From contig CAVURJ010000001.1 in NCBI GenBank assembly GCA_963743885.1, positions 140,949 through 204,948 of the forward strand: a stretch of DNA of 64,000 bases. Direction: 5' to 3'. Every line of letters begins with the position of its first letter. Position 1 is the stretch's first letter. The position numbers and the translations under genes were made by a program. Positions 1,685-13,719 of the stretch are shown here, piece by piece. This stretch comes from Candidatus Moraniibacteriota bacterium (GTDB taxonomy: Bacteria; Patescibacteriota; Minisyncoccia; Moranbacterales; UBA1568). Below the pieces are notes generated by a model. The model was given only the letters and a program-made list of their open reading frames with translations. It did no database searches and was not told the DNA's origin.

Positions 1685-3574
1685 TTAGTGTTCATTGCCA
1701 GCGGGGTCGCTTTTCGTATATTCTTCTCGCATACGTTTCCATATTTCTAATGACTGGTATTTCGGTTGCTGTATATCAGAAGGATTAAGAAACCCTGATT
1801 TCATAAGGAAGACAAGGGTATTGAGATCAGCCCCGAGGACGAAAGCATATTTTTCCAATCCGTGTCCTTTCAGTTTTTGGAAAAGCCTGACCTGCTCGAG
1901 ATAGACGGTATCTTTACTGTTTGAGAGAGAGGCCTCTTGAGAAGAGAAGTCAGCTCCCTCGCGGAAGAGCCTTTTTGTTCGATTGATTGCTAATTTGAGA
2001 TTCTTCTCAGCTTGTTTTTTGAAATCTTCATCTGAGAGGCTGCCGATGGCCCGCTGCAGACGCGGCCCTTTCAGCGTGCTCTCATAGAAGGCCTCGAGAC
2101 ATTCGGCGTAGTTCCCACCTTCGAGCTTTTTCACCATGGCCCGGATGTAATGAGGATGGGTGGGGGAAGAATACCCGAAGGCTTGGCGAGAAACAGCATC
2201 TTGGTTGCTCATGGCGCCACATTCAGCGAAGATGTCTGTGCGGCCACTCCCAAGCTTCTTGAATAGCCGGAGAGGGATTTTCGATTTGTTTTCGTGTTGG
2301 AGGACATGTCCCTCAATTTCGTGTGCGAGAGTCACTGGTATGAGGGTAGCTGCGGATTGATTTTTTTTACTACAATGAACCACCTTTTGTTTACCGTTGA
2401 CGGACATGGTCTTAGATGTATCGCTTGCGATGAATTGCCATTTGCCGTCAGGTGCTGATCCAGTTCTGTCTGGGGAATAACTTTCAGCGGAGTGCTCGCT
2501 GAGCAATCCGTATGAGTTGAGGACTTCCTGAGCGAGACTCTCCACTTGCGCTATGGGGGTGGTTTCTGAGAAGAGTTTTTCCTGATCTAGTCCGGCAGCC
2601 TCTATCTGCTCGCGCCGCAGCACGAGGCTGGACACGTATTCGCCCTCAAATTCTTCGGCGAATCGGATCAGGTCAGTATCGACTTGCTTTCTCTGTTGAT
2701 CAGGCCCGTAGCCCGGGGCGGCACCGTTGATGAATTTGTCGTAGCGAGAAAGGTTTTTTTCGGGGGCTTCGGTGCCGGAAACGAGTTTGAGTATCGAGAC
2801 TTCATCTTCGGAGAGGGAGGTACCCCCGAGGCTTTTCCGTTTCTGTTCAATCGCGAAAGCGGCAGAGGCATTGTCGGCGAGCATATGGTTTACCCGGACG
2901 CGGTATATGCCGATGATGCCGGAGAGTACGGTTCTGAACGACGCGCTTTTCTTTGCAAGCTCCGATTCAAGTGATTCTTCGTAGTTGCGAAGTTGCGTTT
3001 TGAATTGCCTCAATGCGGAGAGTTTGGCAAGCGTTTTTTCCGGCGTCAATTGGATCTTGGCGATGACCGGGTTGTCCGAGGTCTCCGTTCGGATACTGCC
3101 GTCGGCGAGCATGGATGCAGAGATCTTCTCGAATAGCCTCTGTTCGCTCCAATCACGGGAGCGCCCACAAAGATCACTTCGTTTTTTGGAATCGATCTCC
3201 GCGAGAACTGGCGTCGCGGTGTAGAGGGCACGCAGAACATTTTCTGTGGAGGAGCCGTCTGATTCGAATGACCTCCCGACGACCGCTTCGAAGTCGGCAC
3301 GACCTTCATCACTAGAAAGATAATCGACGTAGAGCGAGGCTGTTTTGTGGGTGATTTCGAAGACCTTTTCAAGCGTTGATCCGAGAGCATCCTCGAGCGC
3401 GCTGATTTCCTTGCGCTCTTCGGGCGAAAGAGGGATTTTTTCAGCTTTGCCGGATTCAAAATCAGCGAGCTGTCGGAGCTTGCTTTCTATGTCGGATGAC
3501 GGACGCTCAGGGTAGAGCGGCCGACGGATGGGCTCGTGATCGGCGGTACCGGTGGTTTTTTCGATGATTTCCAT
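1685..3574 (-). CDS. Large conserved hypothetical protein (629 aa) with HEIEGH motif; possible metallopeptidase-like partner of ATP-grasp ligases
   Basis: Long ORF with GC3-rich codon usage, co-directional with upstream ATP-grasp genes; LAHEIEGHVLQHEN motif; no canonical HExxH. Confidence 0.55.
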   Translation of the reverse strand: MEIIEKTTGTADHEPIRRPLYPERPSSDIESKLRQLADFESGKAEKIPLSPEERKEISALEDALGSTLEKVFEITHKTASLYVDYLSSDEGRADFEAVVGRSFESDGSSTENVLRALYTATPVLAEIDSKKRSDLCGRSRDWSEQRLFEKISASMLADGSIRTETSDNPVIAKIQLTPEKTLAKLSALRQFKTQLRNYEESLESELAKKSASFRTVLSGIIGIYRVRVNHMLADNASAAFAIEQKRKSLGGTSLSEDEVSILKLVSGTEAPEKNLSRYDKFINGAAPGYGPDQQRKQVDTDLIRFAEEFEGEYVSSLVLRREQIEAAGLDQEKLFSETTPIAQVESLAQEVLNSYGLLSEHSAESYSPDRTGSAPDGKWQFIASDTSKTMSVNGKQKVVHCSKKNQSAATLIPVTLAHEIEGHVLQHENKSKIPLRLFKKLGSGRTDIFAECGAMSNQDAVSRQAFGYSSPTHPHYIRAMVKKLEGGNYAECLEAFYESTLKGPRLQRAIGSLSDEDFKKQAEKNLKLAINRTKRLFREGADFSSQEASLSNSKDTVYLEQVRLFQKLKGHGLEKYAFVLGADLNTLVFLMKSGFLNPSDIQQPKYQSLEIWKRMREEYTKSDPAGNEH

Positions 3575-3651
3575 AGGCTTCTTTCAGTATAGATGATAGA
3601 AACAAAAAGAGAAGCCGACGAGGCTTCTCTTTTCTAGCTATGGTCACGCGG

Positions 3652-4647
3652 CTAGCCTCTCTTCAACGACGGGAAAACGCTTTTCAAGAGGAGGAGTGAG
3701 ACGTCGGTGCCCCTGCCTTCCACGAGCGGTTTTTCGTTCATGTTGTAGAACGGATGAGGATTGATCTCGAGGATCACATAAGGAGCCTTCGGAGAAGCGA
3801 TGTTTTCAGCGAGGAAGTCGAGGCCGCCGTAGGTGAGGCCTACAGCCTCCATAGCTGCTACCGCCGCCTTCTTGAGAGATGGATGCATTTCTCTCGTCGT
3901 GTCGATTGCTCTGCCGCCATCGGACATGTTGAGATTGTTCCTGAATTTGAAGAAGTGACCTTTTTTAAGGATGGAGTCGAGCGTCAAGCCCGCCTCTTTA
4001 AGGGACGCATTCGCCGTATCGTCAAGCTTGATTTCGAATCCCTTGAGACGATTCTTATTGAAGGCCTTGATGAGCTTATTAATGGAGGTCTTCCCATCTC
4101 CAGTGACCCCAGCAGGAATCTTCTGCACGCAGGAGATGACTTTCCCACCAAATACGAGTACGCGGTATTCGTTCCCGACGAACATCTCTTCGACGATGAT
4201 GGATATATTCTTCCGTTTCCCGTAAGCGATGAGGGCGTGTTGGGTAGCCGCGCGGAGCTCTTTTTCAGAGCGGATGTTCCAAGTGACGCCTTTGGCGAGC
4301 GACCCATCAAGCGGCTTCGCGATGAGCGGGTAGCGGAGCTTGGCAGATCGGACTTCACGGATGGCTTCAGTATGCGACCGGGCAGTGATGCCGCGCGGTG
4401 TGCTGATGCCAATCTCTGTGAGGACAGCTTTTGTCAACGTCTTGCGTTTCGTGAAATTCCCCATATTCCTCTTGATGGGGAGGTTGTTCTTGTAGCAGAA
4501 AACAGTTTTCCCTTTGTAGGAGAGCTTGGTGAAGCGGATATCTCCATCGTGCATCACGGAGACGGAGATTCCGAGTTCGACGGCTTTTTTGAGGAAAGAG
4601 CGGAAGCCGCCGTGCTTGATCGCCTTGATGTATTCGTTCATGTCCAT
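3652..4647 (-). CDS. ATP-grasp family ligase (RimK/cyanophycin-synthetase-N-like)
   Basis: 331 aa; ATP-grasp hallmarks (IAKPLDGSLAKGV, EEMFVGNEYRVLVFGGKV, LDFLAENIASPKAPYVILEINPHP); 6-bp gap to next gene. Confidence 0.65.
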   Translation of the reverse strand: MDMNEYIKAIKHGGFRSFLKKAVELGISVSVMHDGDIRFTKLSYKGKTVFCYKNNLPIKRNMGNFTKRKTLTKAVLTEIGISTPRGITARSHTEAIREVRSAKLRYPLIAKPLDGSLAKGVTWNIRSEKELRAATQHALIAYGKRKNISIIVEEMFVGNEYRVLVFGGKVISCVQKIPAGVTGDGKTSINKLIKAFNKNRLKGFEIKLDDTANASLKEAGLTLDSILKKGHFFKFRNNLNMSDGGRAIDTTREMHPSLKKAAVAAMEAVGLTYGGLDFLAENIASPKAPYVILEINPHPFYNMNEKPLVEGRGTDVSLLLLKSVFPSLKRG

Positions 4648-4653
4648 ATGCGG

Positions 4654-6054
4654 CTAGATTGATTTATTAACGTCGATGAGGAACTTCCTGAGATGCTTTC
4701 GTCCGATGATAGCTCGGTATTCGAGGTGCGACCGATCGATGACGGAGACTTTGGCGGGAATAGCGAAGGTGTCGATGATGAGCGAAACGAGCACTTTTGG
4801 CCTATAGGATGTGCCGTGCGAGGATTTTACGGGGACGGTATCCGCAAGATCTGGAATGCCGGCAAAGAGTGATTCACGCTCTAACTTTGACATCTCAGTC
4901 ATGATGTCACGGCCGCCGATCTTTTCCTCGAATGTTCGTATTGCTTCTCCGAAACCGAGTTCGCGGGCGAGTTCGGTATCGATGGAAGTGGAGTCGGCGC
5001 CGGTGTCGATCTTGGCTTCAACTTCGATCTCTTTGCCGCCCTTGCCGATGAGCTTCACTTTCTCAACAGCACCGATGACGCGCTTGCCGGAGAGTTCCTC
5101 GACCGCCTCTTCGATCTCACCACCGAAGAGGTTTTGGCCGACGCGGATGCCACGATCAGTGGTCTTGATCTTGAGCCCGGCGACGCGATCGAGCCGGCCG
5201 CGGAGGCCGGAGAGGTTGGCCAGCTGGATGGAGAGGCCTGGGCGAGCGTTGAGCTCGAGGATGACCGGGCCACGCTCGCGGTCGATGGCGATGTCAGCAC
5301 CGAGGAAGCCAAGTCCTGAAAGATTCTGTGACTCGACGGACATGCGGAGGATCTCTTTCCAATAAGGGATGCGAATGCCGGAGAGGGCGAGGCGGGCGCC
5401 AGGGACGTACTCGATGATGTTGCCCTTGCCGAGGATGGCGGTCGTCGTCGTGCCGGTCGCGAGGTCGATGCCGACGCCGATAGCTCCCTGCTGGAGGTTG
5501 GCCTTGCCGTCGGAAGCGCGGGTCGGGAGGCGGAGCATCGCCATGACCGGGACGCGGTTGAAGACGATGACACGGATATCAGGAATGCCTTTGTAGGCGT
5601 AGGGCTTGAAGAGTTTGAGGAGCGTGAGCCGCTCTTCAAAGAAGGCAATATCAGGGATATTGGAAAGCGAGAAGGACCCGTCGAGGATGTTTTGGATATG
5701 CGTCTTCAAGTCCTCGATGGTGATGATGGAACCGTCGGCCTTGACCCAGGCGTCGGGTCGGTTCTTCTTCCTCGCGTAGACGACCAGGATGCCTTCGCCG
5801 CCAAAGCCGCGGTTCGGCTTGAGGGCGAAGCTTGCCGGCAGGGCGGTCCAGTCGAAATGCTCGAGCTCTTCGCGGGTGCTGATTTTAGCGATGAGACCAG
5901 GCACACCCAAGCCAGCCTTCTTCAGGGTGCGCTTGGAGAAGAGCTTGTTGTCGGCGAGCTCTCGGCTCCGTTTGCGATTGAGCGGGCGCACGTAGTCGAG
6001 GTTGCGCGCGTTCATGCCGAGCACCGAGCGGCTTTTTCGGAAGAAATCGAACAT
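4654..6054 (-). CDS. Alpha-L-glutamate ligase-like (RimK-related) ATP-grasp protein fused to C-terminal retropepsin-like (DUF785/RimB-like) domain
   Basis: N-term VLGMNARNLDYV...LADNKL resembles the alpha-L-glutamate-ligase-related family; C-term EVEAKIDTGADSTSID has the D-T/S-G-A aspartic-protease signature. Confidence 0.7.
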   Translation of the reverse strand: MFDFFRKSRSVLGMNARNLDYVRPLNRKRSRELADNKLFSKRTLKKAGLGVPGLIAKISTREELEHFDWTALPASFALKPNRGFGGEGILVVYARKKNRPDAWVKADGSIITIEDLKTHIQNILDGSFSLSNIPDIAFFEERLTLLKLFKPYAYKGIPDIRVIVFNRVPVMAMLRLPTRASDGKANLQQGAIGVGIDLATGTTTTAILGKGNIIEYVPGARLALSGIRIPYWKEILRMSVESQNLSGLGFLGADIAIDRERGPVILELNARPGLSIQLANLSGLRGRLDRVAGLKIKTTDRGIRVGQNLFGGEIEEAVEELSGKRVIGAVEKVKLIGKGGKEIEVEAKIDTGADSTSIDTELARELGFGEAIRTFEEKIGGRDIMTEMSKLERESLFAGIPDLADTVPVKSSHGTSYRPKVLVSLIIDTFAIPAKVSVIDRSHLEYRAIIGRKHLRKFLIDVNKSI

Positions 6055-6096: not shown

Positions 6097-6756
6097 TTAC
6101 TGCATGTTGCGGAAGACCTTGCGGAAGCGCAGGTATTCTGAGAGACGGAGGCCCGTCCATTTGCCGAGCGAAAAGTTGACTGCGAAGGTGAGGAGGACAG
6201 CCCACGGGTATTCGAGAATGAGCGCAGTGAGTGCGTCCCAGCTGATGAGGAAGTATCCTGCGACGGAGATGATGAGTGTTTCGAGTGCGAGGAGCGAGGC
6301 GACTTTGTTGCCCTTCTCGATCTGGGTCGCGACAAATTTTTCCGCGAGCGTAATCATGATGAGGAGCGGGAAGATGTCGATGCCGGCGAGGCCGGTGCGA
6401 TGAAATGATCCGCCAACGACCAGGATGCCGAGGATGGAAAGCGAAACGATAGAGAGCGTGATGGCAACGCGCGGAAGATAGAGCAACCGGAAGTATTTCA
6501 GGATGTAGCGCGAGATCATGCCGACCAGGATGACCGAGAGGAAGATCGCGATGCCGTACTTGAGTCCGTTCGGGTCGAAGGCGATGAGCGCAAAGGTGAT
6601 GATGGACGGTGTGTAGATGCCGAAGGCCTTGATGCCGACGACCTGGCGGAAGAAAGCGACGAGCGTCGCGACGATCGGCAGCATGAGAAGGAGCGCGACC
6701 GTTTCGAGCGGCACACCCTGTTCGACGAAATAGGCGATGAGAGGATGGTATTGCAT
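6097..6756 (-). CDS. Polytopic membrane protein (6-7 TM), 7TM partner of ATP-grasp ligase operon
   Basis: 219 aa, almost entirely hydrophobic helices; first gene of co-directional operon. Confidence 0.6.
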   Translation of the reverse strand: MQYHPLIAYFVEQGVPLETVALLLMLPIVATLVAFFRQVVGIKAFGIYTPSIITFALIAFDPNGLKYGIAIFLSVILVGMISRYILKYFRLLYLPRVAITLSIVSLSILGILVVGGSFHRTGLAGIDIFPLLIMITLAEKFVATQIEKGNKVASLLALETLIISVAGYFLISWDALTALILEYPWAVLLTFAVNFSLGKWTGLRLSEYLRFRKVFRNMQ

Positions 6757-10695: not shown

Positions 10696-13600
10696 TCAGA
10701 GATTCGCGACGCGACGGACTTCGTCGAGTGACGTTTTGCCTTCGATGACCGAGAGTATGCCGTCCTGTGCGATGGTGATCATGCCGTTCTCGATGGCCTT
10801 CTCTTCAATCTCATGAGTGAGCGCTCCGCGGGCGATGAGGTCTTTGATGGTATTGTCGATAGGGATGGTTTCCGAAAGGACGAGCTGCCCCGCATGACCG
10901 GTTCCATTGCAATTCTGGCAACCGGCACCACTCCAGATTTTTAGTGCGTCCTTTGGTAGGGTATCAACGTGTTCCGGCGAGAGCGCAGAGAGGACTTTTG
11001 AGATGATGGCGTGTTCCTCATCGGTCGGTTTTCTCGGTTGTTTGCACTTCTCGCAGAGCCTACGGACGAGGCGCTGTGCGATGAGGAGACCACCGGCATT
11101 AGCGATATCATCACCGGAGATGCCCATTTTCATGAGGCGCGATATGGCTCCGGCAGCAGAATTGGCATGGAGTGTTGAGAGTACGAGGTGGCCGGTATTG
11201 GCGGCTTGTATAGCGATGCGCGCTGTATCATCGTCGCGGATTTCGCCTACCATGAGAACATCTGGGTTCTGACGGAGCAAGGCACTGAGAGCGGTTGAGA
11301 AAGTGTATCCTTCAGCTTCGTTTATCTGGGTCTGTAGAATGCCAGGCATCTGGTATTCGATCGGATCTTCGACGGTGATGATTTTCGTCTCTGGTTTATT
11401 AAGGAGTGCAAGCGTTCCGTAGAGCGTCGTTGTCTTTCCGGATCCTGTCGGTCCGGTATTGAGAATGATGCCGTTTGGAGCATGAATTGCGGAAAGAATC
11501 CTTTTCAAGTTTTGCGATCGGAGAGCGAGGTTTTCAAGGTTGAGCGCGGCATTTGATTGGTTCAGAAGGCGTATAACTGCGGTTTCGCCAAAACCTCCGA
11601 GTATGAGAGAAAGTCGAACATTGATTATTTTGTCCGGCGCGCCATCGGGTTGTTCAATAGCAATAGAGAAACGTTTATCGGTAATTCCGGCGCGCTCGCT
11701 TGTCTTGAGGCCCACTAGGTTCTTGATGTCATTGATAAAGCTCGGATATTCGTTGAGCGGGAAGCGTGCGATCGTTTGAAGCATGCCGTCTATGCGGAGC
11801 CTAATGGAAAAATCTTTGTCGGAGGGTTCGATATGGATGTCGCCAGCATGCATATGTATTGCCGCAGCGAAAACGATCTGTAATCTCGTTTTGGATTCTG
11901 AGTGCAAAACGTATTCCTCGAATACCTGGAAAGAAGAGAGGTGTCGCGCTGTTTCGGTGACGATATCGGATGGAATGAACGATGAGCGCGAAAGGTCGCT
12001 CGACATCAAATCGAGGTAGATATTTTTCAGCATATCAGATTGGTCGGTGACGCGGGAAATCTCCTCAAGTGTTGTGATTCCATCGAGCATCTTTAAGATG
12101 CCATCCTGAGTCATGGTGACCATGCCGTTTTCGAGAGCTGCACGAAAGAGCTCCTGTTCAGTTCCGAGATTTTCGATAATCTTGATGATATCCGGCGTCA
12201 TGGCGAAGACCTCAAAAATTCCGATGCGGCCTTTGTATCCCGTAAAATGACAATTTGGGCATCCAGATGCTTTCCAGAGAACCCGCACCTCTTTCGGAAG
12301 CACGATTTTTGCTTTGGGGGATATGATAGTGATGAGGCGGATGATGGAGTCGATAGTTCCTTTCGCTGGTTCGTATGATTGTTTGCATTGGTCGCAGAGT
12401 TTGCGGACGAGCCGTTGCGCGATAAGGACGTTGACTGAGGCAGCAAGGACCGAGGGCTTCACTCCGAGTTCGATAAATCTTGGGATGGCGCCAGGGGCAC
12501 TGTTGGCGTGGAGCGTCGACATGACGAGGTGGCCGGTGAGTGCGGCGTTGACAGCAATATCAGCCGTTTCGTCGTCTCGAATCTCGCCGATAAGAATGAT
12601 GTCCGGGTCTTGACGGACGATAGCTCGGAGCGCCGAAGCGAAAGTATAGGATTTGTCTTTTGAGACTTCAGTCTGTACGATGCCAGGAAGCGAATATTCG
12701 ATCGGATCTTCGACGGTGATGATCTTAGCCCCTGGCTGGTTGATGATATTGAGGAGAGTGTAGAGCGTCGTTGTCTTTCCGGATCCTGTCGGCCCGGTAT
12801 TGAGCACCATGCCGTTCGGCTTTTCAATCTGGCGGAGCACTTCCTCGCGGGCGAGCCCTCGCAGCCCGAGCGAGTCGATATCGACGATGACATCTTCGCC
12901 TGATAGAAGGCGCATATTTATGCTTTCCCCGTATTTTCCAGGGATGATGTTGACGCGGACATCGATGCGTTTTTGGTCGAGCGTGATGAAAAAGTGACCG
13001 TCTTGGGCTTTATCGCGGATATTGAGCCGCATTTTTCCGATCATTTTGATGCGGGAGATGAGTTGCCGGTAGACCGCCTGAGAAAGCGACCCGATATTTT
13101 GGAGTACGCCATCGACGCGATAACGGAGGCGTACAGTATCTTCTTCTGGCTCGAGGTGGATATCGCTTGCGTCGAGCTTTCTGGCGCCAGCAAGAACGAC
13201 CTCGATGGAATGCGAAGTGGTTGATGGCCGATTTTCTTTCAGGCTGATGAGTTCACCGAAATCCTTTTCGAATTGCTCAAGGTCATTGCCTTTGAGCGAG
13301 ACGCGGACGAGGTCAAGGCTATCGCTGACCGATTGTTTTGTATAAGCTTCCCAGGCGCTTTCAATGGATGGTTTTGAGACGACGTAGAGCTCTCGGCCGA
13401 ATCCTTTTTTCTCTACGAACGTATCGATATAGGAAAGCGCTTCTTGGTTTGCTGGGTCGGTAATCGCAAAGAGTGCCTGTAAGCCTTTCTTTTGGAAAAG
13501 GATAAAGCCGAGGCGTCGAGCGTCCGCCTCCGGGATAAGCAGGGCCTCTTCCGGTTCGACAGGAAAAAGACTGAGGTCTATATATGGGAGGCCGCATGAG

Positions 13601-13719
13601 GCGGCGAAACGAGCGGTAGTTTCCTCAATGGAGACCTCCTTCATCTTCTGTAGGAGCTCCTCTGTCTTCCCTGTTTTTTCATCAGGAAGCTGGCTGCTCT
13701 GATGGGTGACTTTCACCAT
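10696..13719 (-). CDS. Tandem-duplicated GspE/PilB-family secretion ATPase (two complete ATPase cores in one 1007-aa polypeptide)
   Basis: Two Walker A boxes (LNTGPTGSGKTTTLYTL and ILNTGPTGSGKTTTLYGTL), two tetracysteine motifs (CDQCKQ...GCPNCHFTG; CEKCKQ...GCQNCNGTG), N-terminal GSPII_E_N-like domain. Confidence 0.8.
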   Translation of the reverse strand: MVKVTHQSSQLPDEKTGKTEELLQKMKEVSIEETTARFAASCGLPYIDLSLFPVEPEEALLIPEADARRLGFILFQKKGLQALFAITDPANQEALSYIDTFVEKKGFGRELYVVSKPSIESAWEAYTKQSVSDSLDLVRVSLKGNDLEQFEKDFGELISLKENRPSTTSHSIEVVLAGARKLDASDIHLEPEEDTVRLRYRVDGVLQNIGSLSQAVYRQLISRIKMIGKMRLNIRDKAQDGHFFITLDQKRIDVRVNIIPGKYGESINMRLLSGEDVIVDIDSLGLRGLAREEVLRQIEKPNGMVLNTGPTGSGKTTTLYTLLNIINQPGAKIITVEDPIEYSLPGIVQTEVSKDKSYTFASALRAIVRQDPDIILIGEIRDDETADIAVNAALTGHLVMSTLHANSAPGAIPRFIELGVKPSVLAASVNVLIAQRLVRKLCDQCKQSYEPAKGTIDSIIRLITIISPKAKIVLPKEVRVLWKASGCPNCHFTGYKGRIGIFEVFAMTPDIIKIIENLGTEQELFRAALENGMVTMTQDGILKMLDGITTLEEISRVTDQSDMLKNIYLDLMSSDLSRSSFIPSDIVTETARHLSSFQVFEEYVLHSESKTRLQIVFAAAIHMHAGDIHIEPSDKDFSIRLRIDGMLQTIARFPLNEYPSFINDIKNLVGLKTSERAGITDKRFSIAIEQPDGAPDKIINVRLSLILGGFGETAVIRLLNQSNAALNLENLALRSQNLKRILSAIHAPNGIILNTGPTGSGKTTTLYGTLALLNKPETKIITVEDPIEYQMPGILQTQINEAEGYTFSTALSALLRQNPDVLMVGEIRDDDTARIAIQAANTGHLVLSTLHANSAAGAISRLMKMGISGDDIANAGGLLIAQRLVRRLCEKCKQPRKPTDEEHAIISKVLSALSPEHVDTLPKDALKIWSGAGCQNCNGTGHAGQLVLSETIPIDNTIKDLIARGALTHEIEEKAIENGMITIAQDGILSVIEGKTSLDEVRRVANL

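Follow-up and report, generated by a model that had tools for sequence, protein, structure and literature searches.

The 64-kb window, that is, the whole stretch of DNA analysed here, derives from an uncultured Moranbacteria-type bacterium and contains a gene for a fusion protein in which a RloC-type ATP-grasp ligase domain, an acidic linker and a RimB/RloA-type retropepsin-like domain follow one another. A first-pass annotation had placed a ligase and a retropepsin-like domain in one polypeptide at this position, and this is confirmed by PF14397, PF05618, the predicted fold and the conserved architecture. The gene of a 7TM membrane protein ends 42 bp upstream of the fusion ORF, and the gene of a second ATP-grasp ligase begins 6 bp past the fusion stop codon. 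The features of the locus are as follows.

6097..6756, minus strand: 7TM membrane protein of 219 aa (PF14402), homologue of the 7TM half of RloB
4654..6054, minus strand: fusion ORF of 466 aa comprising a RloC-type ATP-grasp domain, the acidic linker and a retropepsin-like domain of RimB/RloA type (ORF call, Pfam, NCBIfam, conservation)
5125..6036, minus strand: ATP-grasp ligase domain of the fusion, residues 7-310 (PF14397; TIGR02291-like; RloC alignment)
5086..5124, minus strand: acidic linker GGEIEEAVEELSG, residues 311-323, fusion-specific, consensus GGEIEEEIEE[IL]SG
4663..5085, minus strand: retropepsin-like domain (PF05618/DUF785, RimB-like), residues 324-464 (Pfam, predicted fold)
4996..5007, minus strand: codons for the catalytic aspartate motif D350-T-G-A353, which all 80/80 fusions share
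3652..4647, minus strand: second ATP-grasp ligase of 331 aa, nearest to the ATP-grasp part of cyanophycin synthetase, GshAB and N-acetylglutaminylglutamine synthetase
3604..3634, minus strand: strong terminator-like hairpin with a 13-bp stem and a T run, after the second ATP-grasp gene
1685..3574, minus strand: divergent MATCAP/DUF1704-like metallopeptidase of 629 aa with a HEIEGH (HExxxH) motif (alignment to MATCAP-domain proteins of related loci)

The hairpin is the probable end of a 7TM-fusion-ligase transcription unit. A Pfam scan of the 629-residue metallopeptidase gave no match even at E <= 10, so its relationship to MATCAP is drawn from pairwise alignments only.

A search of 5.8 billion proteins yielded more than 120 clusters, of proteins about 464 aa long, with the fusion architecture (74-92% identity), for nearly all of which both PF14397 and PF05618 are precomputed. 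The clusters with a named source belong to Candidatus Moranbacteria or Patescibacteria and are annotated only as [quoted passage not shown]. With one genome scanned per species, 593 relatives came to light; the best 80 of these 593 are all fusions at 50-81% identity, 78 of them cover the query essentially end to end, and they come from MAGs of Moranbacteria, Paceibacteria, Parcubacteria, Kerfeldbacteria and other Patescibacteria. When the C-terminal 157 residues were used as the query, a search of representative proteins retrieved more fusions at 32-48% identity. The fusion is present in at least 80 Patescibacteria species. The possibility that neighboring genes were merged through a sequencing frameshift, a lost stop codon or a misassembly has nothing in its favor except that it is a general one with metagenome-derived sequence, and it is for practical purposes ruled out, as the architecture runs without interruption through over 120 protein clusters and through 80 species-level genomes obtained independently in many studies. 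Residue conservation was assessed on a set of 80 sequences, namely the window protein and 79 species-level fusions (50-81% identity).

In the ligase half, PF14397 (ATPgrasp_ST) matches residues 17-291 with an E value of 2e-66 and 224 bits against a cut-off of 31.4. PF14397 and PF14402 were reportedly defined by Iyer et al. in 2009 (Mol BioSyst). The best NCBIfam match of the fusion is TIGR02291 (alpha-L-glutamate ligase-like), which scores 288.3 bits, just under its cut-off of 314.2. The first-pass annotation had described the ligase as RimK-like; its membership in the ATP-grasp ligase family stands, whereas RimK proper is ruled out, as TIGR00768 (RimK) reaches 42.6 bits, far under the cut-off of 143.4. 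PF08443 gives 23.4 bits with no single stretch significant by itself. The ligase is instead a RloC/TIGR02291 paralogue. A plasmid of Legionella adelaidensis (NZ_LR134414) carries the classical three-gene rloABC operon, which consists of a RloA-like gene, an inactive-transglutaminase/7TM gene and an alpha-L-glutamate ligase-like gene. The ligase half shares 42% identity with the RloC of this operon over residues 7-283 (E 4e-76), and homology to stand-alone RloC stops near F310, where stand-alone RloC ends. The residues K79, G86, G88, D254, E267 and N269 are each found in 80/80 fusions and R271 in 78/80; the catalytic and Mg/ATP-binding residues of the ATP-grasp domain are therefore retained, and K79, D254, E267 and N269 as strictly as the DTGA motif of the protease. 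In the full-length AlphaFold model, the ligase half is poor (pLDDT ~30-70) and residues 330-460 are confident. The N-terminal half of this model matches RimK, ArgX and LysX in Foldseek, and the link to these enzymes comes from the fold search only, since phmmer gave no PDB sequence match to the ligase half at E <= 0.01. No substrate or activity is reported for RloC itself (PMC12239564).

The retropepsin-like half is matched by PF05618 over residues 327-464 (31.2 bits against a cut-off of 27, E 2.4e-7, profile positions 2-129 of 138), and weaker Pfam matches to generic aspartyl-protease families are centred on the DTG. PF05618 was formerly known as DUF785 or “Zn_protease” and is now named “RimB-like”. 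Alignment to the DUF785 and TIGR02291 models had been suggested with the earlier claim, and it yields a DUF785 match above the cut-off, with TIGR02291 as the top NCBIfam match at 288 against 314. The peptide EVEAKIDTGADSTSID begins at residue 344 of the fusion, and the aspartate of the DTG is residue 350, 116 residues before the C-terminus, in line with the distance of about 120 aa noted at first reading. Weak NCBIfam matches to three RloA retropepsin models (NF052262-NF052264) span residues 322-464 with 31.9 bits against a cut-off of 210 for RloA3, 22.1 against 250 for RloA2 and 18.8 against 280 for RloA. Membership in the RloA equivalogs is ruled out by these scores far under the cut-offs and by the lack of a signal peptide or cysteine. 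Residues 324-464 nevertheless align end to end with the RloA-like protein of the Legionella operon.

Structure prediction of the C-terminal part, also suggested with the earlier claim, gave a retropepsin fold. The domain-only AF2 model (residues 319-466) has a pLDDT of 84.2 and a pTM of 0.78, and all 50 PDB matches listed by Foldseek are of retropepsin type with probability 1.00 and TM-scores of 0.43-0.72 normalised to the target, including Ddi1, the DUF785 protein 2pma, Rickettsia APRc, the proteases of HIV, HTLV and FIV, RloA (9g58) and RloA2 (9g59). The C-terminal half of the full-length model likewise matches DUF785 (2pma), RloA, Ddi1 and retroviral proteases. The protease part is thus predicted to have a retropepsin half-barrel fold. 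The model also places a helical insert of ~40 residues (about residues 360-398) in the flap region of the domain; this region is variable and is missing from some shorter fusions.

The motif D350-T-G-A353 is found in 80/80 fusions, which excludes the case, named with the first claim as one that would speak against it, of a DTG unconserved in orthologues. A lysine or arginine two positions before the aspartate, R418, R441 and G451 are each kept in 80/80 as well, and D350, G352, A353, R418, R441 and G451 are still invariant in fusions at only 41-53% identity. In RloA, K46 (two before D48), R114 and R137 line the poly-glutamate-binding channel, and the R114A and R137A substitutions abolish function/poly-Glu cleavage (PMC12239564). 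The alignment to the RloA crystal sequence, together with the R418-R441 spacing of 23 residues, which equals that of R114/R137, identifies K348, R418 and R441 as the equivalents of K46, R114 and R137. By this sequence comparison, the basic residues of the fusion protease would be the poly-glutamate-binding positions of RloA. An alternative is that the retropepsin-like domain is mainly a regulatory or substrate-binding module that binds the acidic product and activates the ligase allosterically, rather than a working protease. RimB, which trims Glu tails, also binds RimK and raises its ATPase activity and poly-Glu synthesis (PMC11957791, PMC10092738), and a fusion would fix an interaction of the RimB-RimK type permanently. 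The conservation of DTGA in 80/80 fusions, and of its D, G and A at 41-53% identity, is however hard to explain without catalysis, and the isolated RimB domain of the published RimBK hybrid is catalytically active (PMC11957791). A mainly regulatory role is accordingly judged improbable, and it is compatible with the adding and trimming of a peptide tail rather than exclusive of it.

The linker GGEIEEAVEELSG starts at the end of stand-alone RloC, and its conservation almost equals that of the catalytic sites: L309-F-G-G is found in 80/80 fusions, E313 in 77/80, E315 in 78/80, E319 in 79/80 and S322-G323 in 80/80. Retroviral proteases cut themselves out of polyprotein precursors. The fusion could likewise be a polyprotein precursor whose retropepsin domain frees itself at the acidic linker GGEIEEEIEELSG to give separate RloC-like and RimB-like proteins. 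The exact coincidence of the linker start with the end of stand-alone RloC, the near invariance of the linker across 80 fusions and its acidic character, which the substrates of RimB and RloA share, would agree with such processing. However, RimB requires an unbroken run of 5-6 or more glutamates and RloA one of 8 or more (PMC11957791; PMC12239564), and the longest Glu run in the linker is three, so that the linker is unlikely to be a canonical RimB/RloA substrate. In addition, several distant fusions (P0177, P0186) have a non-acidic linker, and the short amphipathic helix that AF2 predicts at the linker could be purely structural. Release of a separate protease is for these reasons considered unlikely, and as a minor rival reading the linker might be a self-cleavage site or a pseudosubstrate.

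The 466-aa fusion protein lacks a signal peptide, TM helices and cysteines. The one segment of strong hydrophobicity corresponds to two beta-strands predicted in the core of the protease; a TM helix at residues 421-439, the peak of hydrophobicity, was considered and ruled out, as AF2 puts these residues in core beta-strands. As the protease domain is internal and follows a cytoplasmic ATP-grasp domain in a protein without signal peptide, TM helix or cysteine, it must be cytoplasmic as well.

The match of the 219-aa 7TM protein to the RloB model (508 positions) is confined to positions 306-506, and the protein aligns with residues 310-501 of Legionella RloB at 28% identity; no transglutaminase part was found in it by Pfam, NCBIfam or the Legionella RloB alignment. 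The RloC/TIGR02291 paralogue together with the adjacent RloB-type 7TM gene indicates that the relevant system is Rlo and not Rim, and on gene content and homology the locus can be assigned to a Rlo-type system with RloC and RloA joined in one protein and a RloB that has lost its external domain. The 7TM gene lies immediately upstream of the fusion, often overlapping its start, in each of the 80 loci that include the upstream flank. Nearly all of the 80 related loci share the gene order RuvC, 7TM, fusion, variable genes and PBP1A. The variable part contains zero to two cyanophycin-synthetase-like ATP-grasp genes, MATCAP-like genes or DUF3541; as a rule, a cyanophycin-synthetase-like ligase and/or a MATCAP-like metallopeptidase comes after the fusion. 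At a distant fusion locus in another genomic neighborhood (L005), the 7TM gene is again upstream and a RimK-like ligase is downstream, from which it follows that the core linkage is functional and goes beyond inherited synteny. In most of the 80 loci PBP1A is encoded a few kb downstream of the fusion, but at least one distant locus, L005, lacks this linkage, which may therefore reflect nothing more than shared gene order around the replication origin.

These neighbors bear on a further alternative, in which the ATP-grasp domain puts an amino acid other than glutamate on a non-protein acceptor, such as a precursor of the cell wall or of a surface glycan, or else a small molecule, and the peptidase processes this conjugate or an unrelated envelope protein. 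The name of PF14397 in Pfam (“sugar-transfer associated”), the PBP1A gene downstream, the cell-shape, beta-lactam and osmotic phenotypes of Rlo mutants (PMC12239564), the cyanophycin-synthetase-like ligase among the accessory genes and a fusion that includes YdjC (P0128) are in keeping with such chemistry. On the other hand, the poly-Glu-binding basic residues of RloA are conserved in the fusions, the nearest solved folds of the ligase (RimK, ArgX and LysX) extend the C-termini of proteins or peptides, and the PBP1A linkage fails at L005. We regard this different chemistry as unlikely.

As both domain assignments hold and both catalytic motifs are invariant across orthologues, a bifunctional ligase-protease that adds and trims a peptide tail, as the first-pass annotation had proposed, is the best reading of the profiles, the predicted fold and the conserved motifs. 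It appears reasonably probable that the fusion is a cytoplasmic, membrane-associated two-enzyme polypeptide of a Rlo-type system that adds and trims acidic peptide tails; its activities and substrate, as well as the ligated residue, target, dimerisation and physiological role, are those that we infer from sequence and model. The RloC-type ATP-grasp domain would ligate amino acids, with an acidic residue such as alpha-L-glutamate as the likeliest, to a carboxylate acceptor, which could be the C-terminus of a peptide or protein or a growing free peptide. The RimB/RloA-type domain would have to meet its counterpart in a second subunit to build a two-aspartate active site, and the paired domains would cut the acidic oligomer endoproteolytically, by which its length would be limited or the oligomer recycled. 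The upstream RloB-like 7TM protein would be the membrane partner and could serve as an anchor, conduit or substrate carrier, and among the accessory enzymes the cyanophycin-synthetase-like ligase would act as a writer and the MATCAP-like carboxypeptidase as an eraser. Such adding and trimming mirrors RimK/RimB and the RimBK hybrid (PMC11957791). By analogy with the Rlo phenotypes, and with PBP1A as a conserved neighbor, the system may have a role in the cell envelope.

Several observations count against this proposal. The protease domain has low identity (~16-22%) to characterised RloA and RimB, with a PDB phmmer E value of 0.016, and the predicted helical insert at the usual flap region could change specificity. 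The TIGR02291 score of the ligase falls slightly short of the curated cut-off, and the Pfam name of PF14397 leaves room for non-peptide chemistry. No target protein with an acidic or poly-Glu C-terminus was found in the 64-kb window, where only spurious short ORFs end in this way. In addition, RloA proteases are secreted and disulfide-bonded in Pseudomonas (PMC12239564), whereas the protease here must be cytoplasmic, so that the site of action, and possibly the substrate, differ.

Other fusions of the same families were also found. P0125 and P0248 are triple fusions of ligase, protease and MATCAP, the latter located in an enlarged gene cluster that comprises four ligases and two MATCAP domains, and P0128 joins ligase, protease and YdjC. 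In P0163, P0191, P0255, P0242, P0225 and P0206, one or two retropepsin domains are fused to a 7TM protein; as the protease sits between an N-terminal signal/anchor sequence and the 7TM domain, it lies outside the cell. These retropepsin-7TM_transglut fusions covalently join the same protease and 7TM families as those of the window, but their protease is extracellular, whereas that of the window protein is attached to a cytoplasmic ligase. A true RimBK-type protein (P0197) was found as a comparison. The occurrence of the protease family on either face of the 7TM family, as a ligase-fused, outer 7TM-fused or secreted form, raises the speculative idea of an acidic peptide, made non-ribosomally, that is carried or threaded through the membrane by the 7TM protein. 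The Patescibacteria module, which consists of the 7TM protein, the ligase-protease fusion, the cyanophycin-synthetase-like ligase and the MATCAP-like carboxypeptidase beside PBP1A, would then be a length-controlled machine for envelope peptide tails or polymers, with the linker as a built-in pseudosubstrate or self-cleavage switch. We give this idea a small chance of being correct.

Pseudomonas needs Rlo to tolerate hypo-osmotic conditions and antibiotics, to form biofilms and to keep a normal cell shape (PMC12239564). A puzzle of the system is that a single pathway uses a cytoplasmic ligase (RloC) yet secreted proteases (RloA). The conservation of a RloC-RloA fusion beside a minimal RloB speaks for a single target molecule of ligase and protease, and the fusion shows that the protease can work on the cytoplasmic side. 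The fusion is a natural experiment on the Rlo mechanism and provides a compact single protein for probing Rlo activity and substrate. It also extends the Rlo system well past Proteobacteria, with a wide distribution in Patescibacteria, and its retention in very small genomes suggests an important role.

Among the known systems, the closest is RloABC of P. aeruginosa (Lormand et al., mBio 2025, PMC12239564) and of the Legionella plasmid (L087), which comprises the same three families in adjacent, co-oriented genes. The ligase and the protease are separate genes in RloABC and a single polypeptide in the window; RloA is secreted with disulfide cysteines, whereas the window protease is cytoplasmic and has neither signal peptide nor cysteines; and RloB carries an external inactive transglutaminase domain fused to the 7TM part, whereas its homologue in the window is 7TM only. 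RloB was reported to be 96% from Proteobacteria, in contrast to the Patescibacteria host here, and the window locus adds the ligase and MATCAP-like genes. The RimK and RimB of Pseudomonas fluorescens, encoded by separate genes, share a writer-eraser logic with the fusion: the ATP-grasp enzyme extends a C-terminus with alpha-Glu, and the dimeric retropepsin, also in the cytoplasm, both shortens this extension and modulates the ligase. The window ligase, however, fails the RimK model (42.6 against 143.4 bits), and RpsF is not implicated here. The earlier statement that RimK and RimB are separate genes applies to Pseudomonas but not in general, as the RimBK hybrid of Desulfotalea psychrophila (DP2392; Little et al., JBC 2025, PMC11957791) also joins a RimB-type retropepsin and an ATP-grasp domain of the glutamate-ligase family in a single polypeptide, and its protease part is experimentally active on poly-Glu tails. 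In RimBK, RimB is N-terminal and RimK C-terminal, whereas the window fusion has the ligase before the protease; the RimBK ligase is a true RimK (PF08443/TIGR00768) and that of the window is of RloC type; and RimBK has no linked 7TM gene and occurs mainly in Flavobacteriales and Rhodobacterales, whereas the window fusion is 7TM-linked and found in Patescibacteria. These differences in order, ligase, linkage and taxa imply independent fusion events. As ligase-protease hybrids of the sister Rim system have already been published, no new principle is involved, and databases already hold fusion proteins with both Pfam domains; a literature search found no paper describing a ligase-then-protease fusion. 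The RloABC system (2025) and the RimB-RimK hybrid (2025) are known, and the RloC-type fusion of a ligase followed by a protease rearranges such a ligase-plus-trimmer system rather than founding a new kind. It differs from both published systems in combining a RloC paralogue, the ligase-then-protease order, a cytoplasmic protease and a 7TM-only partner.

Downstream of the fusion gene and the second ATP-grasp gene, two features of the window concern a further putative enzyme encoded next to the ligases.

1685..3574, minus strand: 629-aa protein with an HEIEGH (HExxxH) motif, MATCAP/DUF1704-like by pairwise alignment
3604..3634, minus strand: strong terminator-like hairpin (13-bp stem and T run) that separates the MATCAP-like gene from the second ATP-grasp gene

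No Pfam match was obtained for the 629-aa protein, even at E <= 10; MATCAP/DUF1704-domain proteins of related loci align with it in pairwise comparison (E 8e-7 and 2e-5). As judged from sequence, the protein is related, though very distantly, to the tubulin-detyrosinating carboxypeptidase family. The hairpin suggests that its gene is transcribed either separately or via read-through. The gene adjoins those of the peptide ligases. In two other proteins, P0248 (locus L006, 3474-5876; 800 aa) and P0125 (916 aa), ATP-grasp, retropepsin-like and MATCAP domains are united in one protein. The cluster encoding P0248 lies between RuvC and PBP1A; besides three further ATP-grasp genes, it contains another MATCAP gene and the gene of a protein combining a PKD domain with 7TM.

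The window also encodes a tandem secretion ATPase protein, which is kept in the related Moranbacteria locus L001.

10696..13719, minus strand: 1007-aa protein whose single chain holds two type II/IV secretion ATPase (T2SSE/PilB-like) modules, both complete, and two Walker A motifs, each reading GPTGSGKTT

GC skew is positive in all 2-kb blocks but one across the whole 64 kb, and dnaN and dnaA lie a few kb from the module in related genomes (L001 and L003), so that the locus is probably near the replication origin. The Moranbacteria-type locus, with 51-80% identity and the same synteny, occurs in many metagenome-assembled genomes titled otherwise (L012, L014, L018 and others, L043, L021), namely as "uncultured Bdellovibrionales", "Micavibrio", "Candidatus Saccharibacteria", "Bathyarchaeia archaeon" or "Fimivivens"; these taxonomic labels are probably wrong.

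Retropepsin-like domains are found in several other settings. In one Patescibacteria genome (L083, 4332-4805), a stand-alone gene directly 3′ of the fusion gene encodes a 157-aa retropepsin-like protein that carries DTGA, lacks a signal peptide and could serve as a heterodimer partner. Unexpectedly, in P0171 (539 aa) a RimB-like retropepsin domain at the C-terminus is paired with a class I lysyl-tRNA synthetase domain (PF01921). Six further proteins combine an N-terminal signal or anchor sequence, retropepsin-like and 7TM_transglut domains in a single chain, with two retropepsin-like domains in tandem in P0163 and one each in P0191, P0255, P0242, P0225 and P0206. No description of this architecture was found in the literature searched. 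The protease of such proteins would be outward-facing, and the retropepsin-like domain stands where RloB of the Rlo system has, in contrast, an inactive transglutaminase domain.
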